The notes below the pieces were generated by a model. It ran no database searches and was not told the DNA's origin. It saw only the letters and a list, made by a program, of their open reading frames with translations. A DNA stretch of 64,000 nt from positions 480,001 through 544,000 of the forward strand of contig OY969699.1 of assembly GCA_963702025.1 (NCBI GenBank), in the 5' to 3' direction. The position numbers and the translations under genes were made by a program. This DNA comes from an uncultured bacterium (GTDB taxonomy: Bacteria; Babelota; Babeliae; Babelales; Vermiphilaceae). Below, piece by piece: positions 8,425 to 16,666 of the stretch (position 1 is the first letter of the stretch; each line of letters begins with the position of its first letter).

Positions 8425-8465
8425 CCGCGTCATCCTGAGGAATGCCGAAGGCATGTCACGAAGGG
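8425..8465 (+). repeat. REP-like palindromic repeat in the typA leader
   Basis: CGTCATCCTGAG-GA-ATGCC GAA GGCAT-GTCACGAAGGG. Confidence 0.75.
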
Positions 8466-8474
8466 GGAAAAGCC

Positions 8475-10271
8475 ATGAATACAGATCGTTCACATATTCG
8501 TAATATCGCTATTATAGCGCACGTTGACCACGGTAAAACTACCTTGGTTGACCAATTACTCAAGCAATCAGGAACCATCAAAGCTGAATCAGCTGAACGG
8601 GTGATGGATTCAAATGATCTTGAGCGTGAGCGTGGTATTACGATTTTGGCCAAAAATACCGGTGTTGCCTATAATGGGTATTCAATTAATATCGTTGATA
8701 CCCCGGGACACAGTGATTTTGGTGGTGAAGTTGAACGAACTCTGCAAATGGTTGAAGGCTTTTTATTATTGGTGGATGCAGCAGAAGGGGTATTGCCCGG
8801 TACGCGATTTGTGTTGCAAAAAGCGCTCGCATTAAATTTAAAGCCAATTGTTTTGATTAATAAAATTGATCGTAAAGATGCTGACATTGAAAGAACGGAG
8901 AGCGCAATCCAAGATCTCTTTTTAGATTTGGCGCTCAATGAAAATCAGCTTGAATTTCCCCATTTATATGGTTCGGGAAGAAGCGGTTATGTATCAACCG
9001 ATTCATCATCACGATCAGGCGACATGACGCCACTTTTTGAAGCGATTATTAAACATGTGCCGGCACCTGTGGCAAAAGCGGATCATTTACAATTTTTAGT
9101 TACCAATTTGGATCACTCTGATTTCTTAGGGCCCATTGCAATCGGCCGTATTTTTAGTGGCTCCATGAAAGTTGGTCAACAGGTTATTTGTTGCAAAGAT
9201 GATAAAGTAAGTTCGCCGATAAAAATTACCAAAATTTATACCTTTGTTGGACTCAATCGTGTTGAAACCGAAACAGTTAGTGTTGGTGACATTGTTGCCA
9301 TTACCGGATTTAATGAACCGGTTTCAATCGGAACCACTATTTGTGATGTTGGTCATCCGTTGCCTCATCCCTATGTGAAGGTTGATGAGCCAACCGTATC
9401 CATTTATTTCTCAGTGAACGATTCTCCCTTTAGCGGTAGAGATGGCACCTTCTTAACATCGCGCCATTTAAAGGATCGTTTGGAAAAAGAGCTCCGCACC
9501 AACGTTGCATTGCGTGTTGAGCCGACGGCCAGCCCCGAATCATTTAAGGTTTCTGGGCGTGGACAATTGCACTTGGGTGTTCTTGTTGAAAATATGCGCC
9601 GCGAAGGATTTGAATTACAACTTTCTGCGCCGGAAGTTATTTACAAAACAATTAATGGCGTAAAAAATGAACCGATTGAATACGTGCTGCTTGATATTCC
9701 ACAAGAATCGCAAGGCGTAGTCATGGAAAATATGGGACGTCGTAAAGCGCAAATGATCGGCATGCATATGTATGATGACGGGCGCATGCGTTTAGAATAC
9801 CATGTTCCGTCCCGTGCATTGCTCGGATTTAGAAGCCAATTCTTAACCGATACACGTGGTAACGGTATTGTAAACTTTAGTTTTCATGGCTATGAACCGT
9901 ATAAAGGTGATATTCAAACACGTAACAAAGGCGCTATCGTTTCTATGGAAGCAGGCAAAGCAACCGGTTTTGCGCTTGATAACCTGCAAGATCGCGGCAC
10001 GCTCTTTATTCGTCCAACCGATGAAGTGTATGAAGGCATGATCATTGGTGAATCGAGCCGTGATGATGATATGGATGTTAATCCGTGCAAAGAGAAGAAA
10101 TTAACCAATATGCGCGCATCAGGTTCTGATGAGGCTATTAAATTGGCCCCGGCAAAAACCATGGATCTTGAAATGTGCATGGAATGGATTCGCCCTGATG
10201 AGCTTATTGAAGTTACGCCGGAACACATTCGTTTGCGCAAGAAAACTTTGCGCGCCGCATTGCGAAAATAA
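8475..10271 (+). CDS. typA: Translational GTPase TypA/BipA
   Basis: IRNIAIIAHVDHGKTT, DTPGHSDFGGEVER, KKLTNMRASGSDE; start placed at MNTDR. Confidence 0.97.
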   Translation: MNTDRSHIRNIAIIAHVDHGKTTLVDQLLKQSGTIKAESAERVMDSNDLERERGITILAKNTGVAYNGYSINIVDTPGHSDFGGEVERTLQMVEGFLLLVDAAEGVLPGTRFVLQKALALNLKPIVLINKIDRKDADIERTESAIQDLFLDLALNENQLEFPHLYGSGRSGYVSTDSSSRSGDMTPLFEAIIKHVPAPVAKADHLQFLVTNLDHSDFLGPIAIGRIFSGSMKVGQQVICCKDDKVSSPIKITKIYTFVGLNRVETETVSVGDIVAITGFNEPVSIGTTICDVGHPLPHPYVKVDEPTVSIYFSVNDSPFSGRDGTFLTSRHLKDRLEKELRTNVALRVEPTASPESFKVSGRGQLHLGVLVENMRREGFELQLSAPEVIYKTINGVKNEPIEYVLLDIPQESQGVVMENMGRRKAQMIGMHMYDDGRMRLEYHVPSRALLGFRSQFLTDTRGNGIVNFSFHGYEPYKGDIQTRNKGAIVSMEAGKATGFALDNLQDRGTLFIRPTDEVYEGMIIGESSRDDDMDVNPCKEKKLTNMRASGSDEAIKLAPAKTMDLEMCMEWIRPDELIEVTPEHIRLRKKTLRAALRK

Positions 10272-10355
10272 TTAAAAAGATTAAATTAGTGCGTTCTCCA
10301 GAGATATTTTGGATTTTGTTAACACAGATGGTGTGAATTAATTCAATATCTAAAT

Positions 10356-10753
10356 CCGTTCGCCTCGATGGAGGCTCCGAAGGAGCCGAATGGAGAGGTA
10401 CAAAAAAGCTATGTTGCAATTTTATGTTTATATTCTTAAGTGTAGTGATGGCTCGTATTATACTGGTCATACCGATGATTTAGAAAAACGAATTGCAGAG
10501 CATAATGCAGGAACTTATATGTGTTATACCGTAACGAGGTTGCCAGTTTTTCTTGTATTTGTACAAGAATTTGCCTCAAGAGCTGAGGCATTAGAAGCGG
10601 AAAGAAAAATAAAAAAATGGGGAAAGAGAAAAAAAGATGCTTTGGTATATAAAGGGTGGGATGGAATCATTGCATTACGCAAAAGAAAATGAACCTCTCC
10701 ATTCGCTCTTTTCTCTCGCTGCGCTCGCTCAAGAGCTCCATCGAGGCGAACGG
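10356..10753. mobile_element. GIY-YIG nuclease cassette flanked by inverted REP-like repeats
   Basis: Inverted repeats at 10356-10399 and 10693-10753 share exact 18-nt and 13-nt arms; the whole cassette lies between direct copies of the typA 3' end. Confidence 0.7.
10411..10692 (+). CDS. Small GIY-YIG nuclease (UPF0213/YhbQ-like)
   Basis: FYVYILKCSDGSYYTGHTDDLEKRIAEHN...AERKIKKW...K. Confidence 0.9.
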   Translation: MLQFYVYILKCSDGSYYTGHTDDLEKRIAEHNAGTYMCYTVTRLPVFLVFVQEFASRAEALEAERKIKKWGKRKKDALVYKGWDGIIALRKRK

Positions 10754-10761
10754 GGGAATGG

Positions 10762-10809
10762 CATATTCGTTTACGCAAGAAAATTTTGCGCGCTGCATTG
10801 CGAAAATAA
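10762..10809 (+). repeat. Duplicate of the last 48 nt of typA
   Basis: 44/48 identical to 10224-10271. Confidence 0.9.
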
Positions 10810-10854: not shown

Positions 10855-11307
10855 ATGAAGTTACGATATATTATTAGTATAACTTTTTTAACACTAGCAG
10901 CCTCGAGTTTTTTAGTTATTAACAATTGTAATAGCACGACACAATCTGATTCTTATGCGCAAGCTCATTGCGTTTTTTGCAAGATTGTTGCCGGGCAAGA
11001 GCCGGCAAAAGTTATTGCGGAAAATGAGGATGTTTTGGTATTTCAATCTATTGCGCCCCGTTATCCTTCTCATTGGCTCATAATTCCTAAAAAGCATATT
11101 AAAGATCTTAAGTCTGCTCAACCGGATGATACTTTGGTGCTGGGGAAATTATTAAAAGCTGCCGGTGATTTGGGTAAGCAATTACAAGAACCAAAGGCAT
11201 TTAATATTCAAATTAACGAGGGTGCGCAAGCCGGCCAGACGGTATTTCATCTGCATCTTCATTTTCATTCACAAAGCAAATTAGCAACAAATAATCCAAA
11301 AATTTGA
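10855..11307 (+). CDS. HIT-family (HinT-like) nucleotide hydrolase with N-terminal signal/anchor
   Basis: CVFCKI, AGQTVFHLHLH. Confidence 0.9.
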   Translation: MKLRYIISITFLTLAASSFLVINNCNSTTQSDSYAQAHCVFCKIVAGQEPAKVIAENEDVLVFQSIAPRYPSHWLIIPKKHIKDLKSAQPDDTLVLGKLLKAAGDLGKQLQEPKAFNIQINEGAQAGQTVFHLHLHFHSQSKLATNNPKI

Positions 11308-11317
11308 AAGGTTTGGC

Positions 11318-11572
11318 ATGAATATGCGTAATTATGCACTCGCATTTAGTCTTTTGCTATTTCTTACGCCACAATCTGCTCTTAAAGCAGATCATCTTGA
11401 TCACTATTCCCATGCGCAATTAAAAGAAATTATTGAATTGCAGCGTTATGAAATCAAACAACTTAAAGACCAACTATTCTGGAACAAATATAAACATCGT
11501 ACGCAAGGAATTGGTTTTGGCGCATGCGCAGTAATTGGCGGCTATTATTTGAATAAGTTTTTCTTTAAATAA
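11318..11572 (+). CDS. Small secreted coiled-coil protein with C-terminal hydrophobic segment
   Basis: Signal peptide; operon spacing. Confidence 0.65.
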   Translation: MNMRNYALAFSLLLFLTPQSALKADHLDHYSHAQLKEIIELQRYEIKQLKDQLFWNKYKHRTQGIGFGACAVIGGYYLNKFFFK

Positions 11573-11594
11573 ATATTAATAAAGGGAGAAGATA

Positions 11595-11825
11595 ATGAAG
11601 CGTGTGATCATTGTGATGATTGGTTTTTTGTGTGCGCCGGTAGCATCTGCCTATCACAATTTTTCTAAAGAAGAACTTGTTGAGATGGTGGGCATTCTTT
11701 TGCAACAAAATACCAAACTAAAAAATGAACTAAAAAAAGCCAAGGTTGAATTAAACGAAGAACATGCAATTAATCGGTTGGAAAAAGAATTGCAAAAATT
11801 TAATAGAGATATTGATCTGAAATAA
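11595..11825 (+). CDS. Small secreted coiled-coil protein, weakly similar to the upstream ORF
   Basis: Signal peptide; GGGAG SD. Confidence 0.65.
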   Translation: MKRVIIVMIGFLCAPVASAYHNFSKEELVEMVGILLQQNTKLKNELKKAKVELNEEHAINRLEKELQKFNRDIDLK

Positions 11826-13393: not shown

Positions 13394-16300
13394 TTATCGT
13401 GCCATTTTTTCCAATACTCTCATAACCTTAGCCATTTTTTGCTCACATTCTTGTAAGCGCATTTCTTGGCTTTGGATTTGTTTGATTAAGACTGGAATGA
13501 AGGCCGTATAATCGACTGTTACTATTTCTCCCTTGCTATCCAAGCAGATCATCTCAGGATATACAGGAGCCACTTCTTCAGCAATCAAGCCGCAACGGGT
13601 TGCTTCGGTTTGATCATTGATATATTTGAAGGTGACCGGACGGAGCTCCATGAGTTTTTCAGCTTGACATGGCATTGGTTCAATATCTTTTTTCAAGCGA
13701 CGAGAAGAGTAACATATACCAAGTTGATTCGTCGCAGGATCTATGTACACAGCCGCTTGGTGCGCAATTTGTGCATTGCCTATACCGGCGATATAGCAAG
13801 CATTTTGGACGCAAGTAGATACATCTGGAAATTGGCAAGGTCCTGTGCAGTAGGTTGATCCGATTCTTATGGTGCGTGCTTCGCCCGCTACTCCCGGATC
13901 GCCAATATAGATATTCTCAGATTCACCGGCAGTAAGATTAAAACCGGCCAGATATCCTATAAGGATGTTACTGGTACCAGTAGTTAATGAAATTCCTGCG
14001 GTAGAACCTACTACCGTATTTTGGCCTGCGGCTCCTCCAAGGCGGTTAAAATTTTGCAATGCCCCATGGCCCACGGCAACGTTATCAGGGCTAACAGTGA
14101 GGCTGTTCAGTGCAAAGTCACCAATAGCGGTATTATTAAAGCCGGTTGTGCACTTTAAGAGCGCTTGATAACCAAATGCTTGGTTGGCAGTGGCTCCATT
14201 GGCTGCGGCCAGTGCTTGATAGCCAACTGCAGTTTGAGCTGTTCCGGTGGTTTCGCTGCTCAGCGCGCTCCATCCTACTGCCACGTTGCCGGTTCCGGTA
14301 GTGAGGTCCGAAGCCGCGTAAGCACCTACTGCGGTGTTTTCGCCGGCTGTGCTGGTTGCCAGAGCAGCGTATCCTACGGCTACGCTTCCAATTCCTACTG
14401 TATTAAGAGAGAGAGCGGTAGTACCGAGTGCGGTATTGTTACTGCCGGTGGTGTTAGAAAGAAGTGCGCTTTGGCCAAATGCAATGTTATTATCACCCGT
14501 TGTATTTGCGGCAAGTGATGAGACGCCCACTGCGCTATTGTAAGTTCCGGAAGAGTTTAAGGCTAATGAACTGTATCCTACTGCGGTATTATTATCACCC
14601 GAGGTGTTGGATGCTAACGCAAAGGCTCCCACGGCAACAAGAGATGTTCCGCTGGTATTGAGTAATCCGGCTTCATAACCAAGTGCGGTGTTACCGGAGG
14701 TTGCTGAAGCGGCTGATAATGCCTGGAATCCGACTGCGGTGTTGAAGCTGCCGGTGTTTGCGCCGAGTGCGCTTAGCCCAACTGCTACATTTTCTATTCC
14801 TGTTGTGTTGGCAGCAAGCGAACCTACCCCGACCGCTACATTGTCTGTTCCTGTTGTGTTGGCAGCATTAGCGCCTGATCCTACGGCAGTATTATTAGCC
14901 CCACTTGTATTCGCCAAGAGAGCATTGTATCCAAGTGCGGAATTATTAACACCAATCGTATTCGCTGCTAATGCAGTGTACCCAACTGCTGTGTTATTTG
15001 AGCCAGTAGTATTGTTTAATAATGCTGAGGTTCCTATTGCGGTAATAGCTGTTCCGGTTGTATTAGTACCTGCTGCTTGATAGCCGAATGCAGTGTTAGA
15101 GTCAACGGTGTTTGCAGTAAGGGCTCCATATCCACCGGCGGTGTTAAAGCTTCCGCCGCTGTTATCCAGGAGTGCATACATACCGATTGCGGTGTTTTCA
15201 AAACCTGTTGTATTGCGAGCAAGGGCACTGTAGCCAACGGCAGTATTGTCTGCAGAGGTATTTGCTGCTAATGCTGCACTACCCACAGCGGTATTGGCCC
15301 CGCCGTTACTTGCAGCTAACGCAAAGTTACCAACAGCGGTATTATCATTAGCGGTACCGTTTGCTGCGCCGGCATTTACGCCAACGGCGGTGTTACGGGT
15401 ACCTAAAGTGTTTCCCGTCAAGGCTTGCAATCCGACGGCAGTGTTATTATCGGCAGTACTAGTAGCAAGAGCGAGCGCGCCGATTGCCGTGTTATTTGAA
15501 TTGGCTACGTTTGCATTAAGAGCGCTGTAACCCACTGCTGTATTATGAAGACCTGGATCGGTATTTTCAGCCGCCAAAGAGCCAACTGCTACGTTGAATG
15601 ATGCTGTGGTGCCCGCAGCGTTCAAGGCTAAATAACCTACTGCGGTGTTATCGGTGCCCGATACGTTTGATCCGCCTGCGCCGTTACCCACCCATGTATT
15701 ATCTGAACCATTTGCTACCAATCCGCTACCAAATCCAACTTGTAAGTTAGTGCCGGCTGCATCAAGAACACGGATACAGGTAATCTCATAATCACCGTTA
15801 GTATTTATACCGGTTCCACATACGGTTAAGAAACCGCCGATGCTTACACCACCTCCAACAACCAATGCTCCTGTTGCGCATCCGGTTGGACTACAAATTG
15901 CAGGAAGCGTGGAAGGAATAATTAACGGTCCGGAAAAGCTTATGCCACCGCTTGCGCTGATACTGCCACAAACATTCAAGTTGCCACCAACACCGGCGCC
16001 GCCAGCTACAACCAATGCGCCGTTTGTGCAACCGGTACTTTGTGTGGTGCTACAAACGTTTAAGTTGCTGCCAATTGACGCGCCGCCATTTACTACTAAG
16101 GCGCCATTTCCACAGCCGGTGCTTGGAGCAGTACTGCAAACATTAAGATTTCCGCCGATTGCTGCGCCGCCATTTACCACTAAGGCACCGTTTGTGCAAC
16201 TGGTACTAGGAGCAGCACTGCAAATGTATGCCGTTTGAGCGCTTAACGGACCGCCAATATTAGCAGCGCCCGTTACGCAAATGTTACAAAAATTGGCATT

Positions 16301-16666
16301 TCCCACACCGGCGCATGGAACGCAAAAGACTCTTTTTTGATCATCTTGGAGAATCATAACCGGTGATTCTGAGTTTAATAATTCATGCAATTCATCAAGA
16401 ACTTCTGAGGACATGCTGATTGGTTGTTGTTCTTCTAGAATTGGAGCCGGCGCCTGTGCTTGCGCGGCTGCTTTGGCTAAAGCCTCTTGTTGTTCTATAT
16501 AGCCCACCAATTGCTCAAGGTTGGTGCCCACCGGCAAATGCTCGGAAATGGGAATTGCTAAAACCGGTTTTGGCTTAGCTTTATTAGATGAAGAGGGCTT
16601 TGCTTGTATCATCGGACAACCGATAATAAGCAAAAGACAATAAAGATTAGACATACGTAACTTCAC
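13394..16666 (-). CDS. Large secreted trimeric fibre/adhesin with NTAVGxxAL repeats and C-terminal intramolecular chaperone (peptidase S74) domain
   Basis: Signal peptide; Cys-containing GALVVNGG repeats; dozens of 14-aa repeats; SSRRLKKDI...LRPVTFKY...GLIAEEV then a coiled coil. Confidence 0.85.
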   Translation of the reverse strand: MKLRMSNLYCLLLIIGCPMIQAKPSSSNKAKPKPVLAIPISEHLPVGTNLEQLVGYIEQQEALAKAAAQAQAPAPILEEQQPISMSSEVLDELHELLNSESPVMILQDDQKRVFCVPCAGVGNANFCNICVTGAANIGGPLSAQTAYICSAAPSTSCTNGALVVNGGAAIGGNLNVCSTAPSTGCGNGALVVNGGASIGSNLNVCSTTQSTGCTNGALVVAGGAGVGGNLNVCGSISASGGISFSGPLIIPSTLPAICSPTGCATGALVVGGGVSIGGFLTVCGTGINTNGDYEITCIRVLDAAGTNLQVGFGSGLVANGSDNTWVGNGAGGSNVSGTDNTAVGYLALNAAGTTASFNVAVGSLAAENTDPGLHNTAVGYSALNANVANSNNTAIGALALATSTADNNTAVGLQALTGNTLGTRNTAVGVNAGAANGTANDNTAVGNFALAASNGGANTAVGSAALAANTSADNTAVGYSALARNTTGFENTAIGMYALLDNSGGSFNTAGGYGALTANTVDSNTAFGYQAAGTNTTGTAITAIGTSALLNNTTGSNNTAVGYTALAANTIGVNNSALGYNALLANTSGANNTAVGSGANAANTTGTDNVAVGVGSLAANTTGIENVAVGLSALGANTGSFNTAVGFQALSAASATSGNTALGYEAGLLNTSGTSLVAVGAFALASNTSGDNNTAVGYSSLALNSSGTYNSAVGVSSLAANTTGDNNIAFGQSALLSNTTGSNNTALGTTALSLNTVGIGSVAVGYAALATSTAGENTAVGAYAASDLTTGTGNVAVGWSALSSETTGTAQTAVGYQALAAANGATANQAFGYQALLKCTTGFNNTAIGDFALNSLTVSPDNVAVGHGALQNFNRLGGAAGQNTVVGSTAGISLTTGTSNILIGYLAGFNLTAGESENIYIGDPGVAGEARTIRIGSTYCTGPCQFPDVSTCVQNACYIAGIGNAQIAHQAAVYIDPATNQLGICYSSRRLKKDIEPMPCQAEKLMELRPVTFKYINDQTEATRCGLIAEEVAPVYPEMICLDSKGEIVTVDYTAFIPVLIKQIQSQEMRLQECEQKMAKVMRVLEKMAR

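Follow-up and report, generated by a model that had tools for sequence, protein, structure and literature searches.

A GIY-YIG nuclease gene between outward-tagged hairpins at a duplicated typA end: possible import by one-sided homologous recombination

How does a single small nuclease gene, bracketed by inverted hairpin repeats, come to lie between two copies of the end of typA, and what has the nuclease to do with the hairpins? The question is raised by a locus in the genome of an uncultured member of the Vermiphilaceae, a single contig of 1.596 Mb that is 95% complete; the stretch analysed, referred to here as the window, covers 64,000 nt of it. An initial annotation of this DNA had proposed that a GIY-YIG nuclease, and not an HUH tyrosine transposase, is the partner of a REP-like repeat family, and that the cassette had arrived with its own target end. 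The argument turns on the following features, numbered from the first letter of the window.

The cassette at the end of typA

8442..10271, plus strand: typA/bipA GTPase gene, an intact ORF of 609 aa with GTP_EFTU, EFG_C and BipA_C domains; the insertion target
10224..10271, plus strand: direct-repeat copy 1, the working typA 3' end (repeat search, codon comparison); probably the incoming donor allele
10272..10355, no strand: 84 nt of non-repeat DNA inside the insert (sequence, genome blastn); a putative donor flank
10356..10398, plus strand: left repeat, with tag CCGTTCG, 4-bp stem CCTC/GAGG, predicted tandem G.A and inner hairpin GGCTCC-GAA-GGAGCC
10411..10692, plus strand: GIY-YIG nuclease gene, UPF0213-like, 93 aa, single domain (PF01541; matches to PDB 1zg2 and 1ywl)
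10694..10753, minus strand: right repeat, with tag and stem as in the left repeat and a longer inner hairpin
10754..10761, minus strand: 8 nt between the right tag and copy 2, on the 5' side of the tag; the nuclease is predicted to have made the junction where they end, 10761/10762, with the cut position taken by analogy from SsnA (PMC11893778)
10762..10809, plus strand: direct-repeat copy 2, the orphan typA 3' end (repeat search); probably the resident allele

The layout described in the initial annotation stands. The last 48 nt of typA form a direct repeat (44/48 identical, spacing 538) around an insert of 538 bp, in which the GIY-YIG gene lies between inverted repeats whose outer arms (10356-10373 and 10736-10753) are complementary at 18/18 positions and whose inner arms (10387-10402 and 10690-10705) are complementary at 15/16, while the inner hairpins themselves are unlike each other. 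The insert is clearly asymmetric: 84 nt of unrelated DNA, with no second copy in the genome by blastn, lie between copy 1 and the left repeat, against 8 nt on the other side between repeat and copy 2, where the typA junction is 9 nt from the CG of the right tag. A HIT-domain gene follows the orphan typA end at 10855, and HIT likewise follows typA in congener G002. As had been claimed, three of the four differences between the typA copies are synonymous (CAC/CAT, TTG/TTA and GCC/GCT), and the fourth, ACT/ATT, exchanges Thr for Ile; all four run from G/C to A/T in the orphan copy.

The encoded protein has PF01541 as its sole domain, with an E value of 3.8e-18 for a 100-aa form read from an upstream ATG at 10390, inside the repeat; GGAGAGG at the 3' end of the left repeat may double as the ribosome site of the gene. 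No NCBIfam family was assigned to the protein, and sequence matches in the structure database include PDB 1zg2 (E 3e-16) and 1ywl (E 1.5e-15). The catalytic-type residues Y7, Y17, R27, H31 and E64 are intact, and they are at least 99% conserved in 196 homologues. Scanning the locus for promoters and terminators gave chance-level matches only, and Rfam scans of the cassette and of the repeats at 16 loci gave nothing near the gathering score, the one abiF match (at L134) lying about 2.2 kb from the gene and outside the repeat.

Some further features of the neighbourhood deserve mention in their own right. The nuclease gene and the orphan typA end share a reading frame, with 23 open codons between the TGA of the former and the start of the latter, and read-through would yield a fusion ending in the typA tail; this is probably chance, because all three frames occur at other loci. 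The interval between typA and truA (11318-11825 in the window, and congener loci L387 and L393-L397) holds variable small ORFs that are signal-peptide-like and His-rich. On the minus strand, a 1090-aa ORF at 13394-16666 carries many short Gly/Ala/Asn/Thr repeats and is adhesin- or tail-fibre-like by appearance.

The repeat family and its partner gene

Read by eye, a member of the repeat family has C-CGYTCR followed by a 4-bp stem, and between the two complementary halves of that stem lies a variable inner hairpin with GA on either side; the invariant GA/GA points to a tandem G.A. Pairing of the stem was tested in 194 copies, kin included, that were found by their anchors only, with pairing not required; it reached 0.80-0.91 per position, where shuffles gave 0.44-0.60, and T-A, C-G and G-C variants all occurred. 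By energy folding, under a model that ignores G.A pairs, single repeats do not stand out (z -0.5 to -1.8). The pattern has 134 copies in the genome, compared with 1-7 in five shuffles, and a C precedes the tag at position -1 in 130 of the 134, making the tag CCGYTCR. The copies fall into 101 clusters (70 singles and 31 multi-copy), and 115/134 lie outside ORFs of at least 150 aa, although such ORFs make up 82% of the genome. The window's own CGAT subtype is a minor one, with nine relaxed matches in the genome, two of them in the cassette; it is present at 5 of the 12 closest homologues, three of ten subtype calls having proved false by inspection.

Comparing how much 5' flank near-identical copies have in common did not delimit the element sharply, in part because some doublets are themselves carried within other inverted repeats flanked by TA. 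Gene-less doublets of this kind (G000:C1 593800-593970, 845050-845210, 1051310-1051480 and 207600-207850) lie inside two other short terminal-inverted-repeat families, several of them TA-flanked and MITE-like with the hairpins as cargo, and the paralogue cassette at 1201772 has flanks common to one of these families. A separate observation concerns the 19/134 copies inside ORFs of at least 150 aa (G000:C1 308977-309933, 385090-385263 and 561939-561987, among them), some apparently in frame, though some of these ORFs may be spurious; we take them to be reminiscent of Rickettsia palindromic elements.

Homologues of the nuclease occur in 89/251 genomes of the phylum, with one to five matches each, and outside it in Chloroflexota, Alpha-, Beta- and Gammaproteobacteria, Planctomycetota, Nitrospirota and others. 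An order-wide search gained no new loci, no relative was found on viral contigs with this query, and the 28 plasmid records matched are all below 60% identity. Among the 164 unique homologue loci, 155 besides the window had 300-nt flanks (84 + 71), and the repeat lay within 300 nt of 133 of these (67/84 + 66/71), in many phyla, as opposed to 9/291 distal control windows (5/161 + 4/130); these rates are not blind, because the pattern was drawn from part of the same loci. Repeats converge on the gene from both sides at 49/84 and 39/71 homologue loci, and 79/108 loci have an identical 7-nt stem key at both ends. The proposal that the GIY-YIG gene is the partner of the repeat family is thus borne out (133/155 vs 9/291), and no Y1/RAYT-type transposase was found: PF01797, the Y1 transposase family, has no match in this 95%-complete genome, and the control search detected it in 6/14 genomes. 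Whether the nuclease is an autonomous partner, as the initial annotation had it, is more doubtful, since duplications are rare at gene-less repeat clusters (1/101) and the window's own subtype is a minor one.

Four further GIY-YIG matches occur in the same genome, three of them flanked by other repeat subtypes; two of these three are broken (G000:C1:1332224-1332513 and 164824-165042), one by a frameshift and one by loss of its N-terminus, and both have kept their repeats. At L171 (G109:C1:1631208-1636370), two nuclease genes lie 890 nt apart amid tandem repeat units. Finally, in sphingomonad loci (L073, L099, L102, L106 and others) the GIY-YIG frame runs stop-free into a downstream ORF, a possible fusion, and that ORF may be a TrmJ-type RNA methyltransferase, to judge from its translated motif.

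Duplicated target ends and the route of arrival

Empty typA sites do exist in relatives, as the initial annotation would have it. Forty relatives were searched, 37 had a typA match and 29 loci were retrieved; none of the 29 has a GIY-YIG match at typA, and none has a second typA-end copy downstream (at least 36/48), the best non-self score being 26 among the nine rows listed (seven congeners, L012 and self). The stretch between typA and truA varies among congeners. As for the alleles, most congeners agree with the orphan copy at the His and Ile codons, and the closest relative agrees with the working copy at 3/4 sites, leaving the polarity mixed. In congener G007, a repeat-flanked homologous cassette adjoins typA on its other flank, in the interval that separates it from rpsR (L387:2717-3010).

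Comparable duplications were sought at related cassettes as two copies of at least 20 nt, at least 85% identical and within 500 nt. Raw hits were found at 12/83 + 9/43 loci of the order, of which 10/21 were removed by eye as repeat units or AT-rich sequence, several of the removed hits duplicating a repeat plus its flank. The curated set comprises duplications of 20-82 nt around 11/126 cassettes (L033, L042, L044, L161, L164, L168, L184, L187, L347, L350 and L357), and the other 115/126 have no clean long duplication. Controls, themselves uncurated, gave 3/240 at shifted positions and 5/191 at other small ORFs; looser settings gave duplications at 1/101 gene-less repeat clusters and 5/626 repeat-free gaps. 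At mixed-phylum loci (n=69) there were three raw duplications, all repeat-related, and SRM-type loci, uncurated, had exact duplications of 20-24 nt in 4/52. The duplicated targets are unrelated to one another and include gene ends, gene starts and spacers. Since duplications of varied length bracket cassettes at unrelated sequences, typA is no dedicated att site, and the claim that the cassette brought its own target end survives in the sense of a donor flank and fails in the sense of a dedicated attachment site.

Where the duplications join the cassettes is informative as well. In a set of 14 (the 11 loci, the window, L064 and L170), seven, the window included, have a junction 5-12 nt to the 5' side of a tag, where a cut like that of Ssn would be expected, and the other seven do not; against an assumed 8% chance per locus, this gives P 4e-5.

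The reading that we favour, with a probability of about 0.5, is that the 538-bp insert is a nuclease-hairpin cassette whose clade is distinct from that of the published Ssn systems, and that it probably arrived together with a donor typA end by one-sided homologous recombination, after a predicted ssDNA cut 5' of the tag had freed its far end. The tags face outward on opposite strands, and gene and repeat occur together across phyla. By analogy with SsnA, the folded repeat would be bound on one strand only and cut 5' of the tag, so that on either strand the cut would fall outside the cassette, and the resulting fragment would have the cassette at its 5' end and host-like DNA as its 3' arm. At this locus, the minus strand would have been cut about 8 nt outside the right repeat, the 3' arm (the 84-nt flank, then typA) would have paired with the resident typA, and the cut end would have been attached to the resident gene 48 nt ahead of its stop codon, through ligation to a displaced flap or, in the form of a small circle, by a single crossover. 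The expected outcome is a donor typA allele working on the left and a resident end orphaned on the right; new sites might be reached by using resident repeat copies as the homology arm. ComEC and DprA are both present in the genome. The same enzyme would also restrict incoming DNA that bears the repeat, as SsnA does in Neisseria. The cut site in this proposal is borrowed from another clade; SsnA cuts its substrate some 3 nt upstream of the motif, nearer than the 5-12 nt junctions seen here (PMC11893778). One-sided, or homology-facilitated illegitimate, integration is reported generally to leave deletions, and circularised linear DNA that integrates by single crossover to leave duplications of variable size (PMC3240628).

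Import of a donor allele should be visible in the differences between the copies, given that one allele, once duplicated and left to age where it is, would accumulate changes in its orphan copy at every codon position. Coding differences are synonymous in 3/4 cases at typA, 5/5 at L350, 0/1 at L044 and 1/1 at L347, where the tally is ambiguous, the duplication overlapping two genes; L164, whose ORF starts inside a repeat, and L170, whose copies differ by indels, were left out. The total of 9/11 has P 0.0008 against neutral decay of the orphan and P 0.022 against decay plus drift of the working copy, values that overstate the significance because the loci are kin. L064 has the pattern of decay (1/4 synonymous), and its inclusion gives 10/15, with P 0.005, or 0.11 under the lenient null; typA alone, at 3/4, is not significant (P 0.09-0.27). 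The duplication at L350 is the end of grpE, and a congener's empty grpE site agrees with the orphan at 3 of the 5 differing positions, as expected if the orphan is the resident allele. With this match and the 9/11 synonymous differences, the pooled evidence favours the earlier suggestion that both copies derive from working alleles.

The main rival is a transposon-like insertion without homology, in which staggered breaks would be filled in to give a long target-site duplication whose copies then drift. It accommodates the six of the 11 duplications that are 100% identical, which fit plain target duplication equally well, and also the unrelated targets, the neutral decay at L064 and the four typA changes that all run from G/C to A/T in the orphan; tag-adjacent junctions are compatible with it too. 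We nevertheless judge it unlikely, in view of the synonymous excess (9/11), of grpE, with 5/5 synonymous and the orphan nearer the outgroup, of duplication lengths that vary from 20 to 82 nt, and of the rarity of duplications at gene-less repeat clusters (1/101); to our knowledge, moreover, the GIY-YIG domain has no strand-transfer chemistry. The absence of a tag-adjacent junction from half of the duplications, together with the fact that hairpins alone can stall replication and focus illegitimate joints, would suit a different reading, namely that of a resident nuclease whose role is to restrict ssDNA bearing the repeat, in a cassette that was moved passively by ordinary gene transfer, with a junction that the nuclease did not make. 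The sphingomonad homologues in frame with a methyltransferase-like ORF look domesticated, and SsnA lowers the integration of motif-bearing DNA in Neisseria (PMC11893778). Against this stand the clustering of junctions at 5-12 nt 5' of the tag (7/14) and a distribution that is patchy, multi-copy and locus-variable (89/251 genomes, one to five matches), which together make passive carriage quite improbable.

Restoration of a gene through duplication of its end is the classic signature of att sites, and the 48-nt repeat could on that ground be the attL/attR of an island that an integrase brought to typA and that deletion later reduced to the cassette. This is very unlikely: the insert has no remnant of an integrase, the two tyrosine recombinases of the genome lie more than 390 kb away, no island or duplicate occurs at typA in 29 relatives, and the same layout is found at grpE and other unrelated gene ends. 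An assembly artefact joining the typA alleles of two strains would explain why the copies are two diverged alleles, and in the contigs of four runs from one study neither junction is bridged, the right one being bridged by no public contig. It is scarcely credible, as the junction sequence belongs to neither the filled nor the empty allele unless it is real, equal geometry is found at 11 other loci, and contigs of two other samples match the left repeat and the start of the gene without differences.

Tentatively, and as a possibility that we hold to be open to considerable doubt, these cassettes could be transposase-free selfish elements of about 400 bp. A 93-residue ssDNA nuclease would cut just outside its own outward-tagged hairpins, so that the intact cassette would lie at the ligatable 5' end of every incoming strand, with sequence for homologous pairing at the 3' end; its installation by host recombination would then duplicate 20-80 nt and spare the target gene. 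This would amount to homing through natural transformation, by a clade and repeat family found in many phyla.

Relation to known systems

The closest described relatives are the Ssn systems (Chenal et al. 2025, PMC11893778), in which cd10448 GIY-YIG proteins with flanking SRM hairpins cut ssDNA a few bases upstream of the motif. The initial annotation had left open whether its pairing was already described: the pairing of nuclease and hairpin in general, along with an IS-like layout (IS200) and the REP/RAYT analogy, is discussed in that paper, and what is separate here is the branch. Like SsnA of Neisseria meningitidis (~94 aa), the window's gene is a single-domain GIY-YIG gene flanked by its own oriented hairpins, which are also dispersed in the genome, with catalytic Tyr/Tyr/Glu at matching positions (Y6, Y17 and E64 in Ssn; Y7, Y17 and E64 here). 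In contrast, it belongs to a separate clade, placement of the window protein inside the SRM group being rejected (p-AU 0.011), and its repeat has a CGYTCR tag, a 4-bp stem, a predicted tandem G.A and a variable inner hairpin. With the same layout and residues in a separate clade, the cassette is regarded as Ssn-like and is not filed as a member.

The SRM-type loci used for this comparison were a proxy set: among 120 metagenome loci in which an NTS half-motif precedes a YVYI codon run, 80 have a GIY-YIG ORF, and none is an experimentally tested SsnA. The SRM pattern is absent from the cassette and matches 0/155 homologue flanks, whereas the same pattern detects NTS and the full SRM upstream of 52/80 SRM-type loci; conversely, the window's repeat motif occurs at 0/80 of these. 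A tree of 31 rows separates an SRM group (100/99, with a long stem branch) from a CGTTCG group (90/84) and a YazA group (92/86), and a single origin for the two groups with repeats is not rejected; the split recurs in a quick tree of 84 rows. The main text of PMC11893778 reports no target duplications and no evidence of mobility, and 12 of its 14 supplements contain no UPF0213, cd10456, CCGTTCG, TCGAAGG, Dependentiae or direct repeat. In the literature outside subscription journals, that paper was the only relevant description found, and no paper held two of the six repeat motifs.

By sequence, the window protein is closer to YazA-type proteins of UPF0213 (47% identity, 76 bits) than to SRM-type ones (36%, 51 bits). 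YazA-type genes differ in their fixed methyltransferase-rsmI context, form a group of their own and have repeats at 0/10 outgroup loci (E. coli yhbQ, with no tblastn match at E 0.01, was left out as an outgroup); context, repeats and the separate clade set the window's gene apart from this housekeeping type. Membership in an integrase island was likewise rejected, there being no linked integrase and no fixed target across the family.

REP/REPIN-RAYT systems, or REPtrons, resemble the family in their tagged extragenic hairpins, present as singles and doublets, with one enzyme gene between inverted copies, and differ in that their enzyme is an HUH tyrosine transposase and not a GIY-YIG nuclease. 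The REP tag families described are GTAG and CGTC (Di Nocera 2013, PMC3733652); the window's tag is neither, and 'CGTTC' does not occur in the main text of that paper. Homology-facilitated illegitimate recombination, as described in PMC3240628, shares the combination of homology at one end and an illegitimate joint at the other, and differs in being a host process, usually accompanied by deletions, with no element there supplying its own cut end.

Whether nuclease-hairpin units are mobile, and by what route the repeats spread, was left unanswered in the Ssn paper (PMC11893778); the typA locus and its relatives offer a concrete, testable answer, with a predicted cut position that can be read from genome junctions. 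A donor allele that works beside a resident allele that is orphaned would be the mark separating recombination-driven import from transposition. Moreover, beside Ssn, the family points to a second clade of candidate site-specific ssDNA nucleases, one that is very widespread, has a recognition hairpin of its own and may be of use for tool development.
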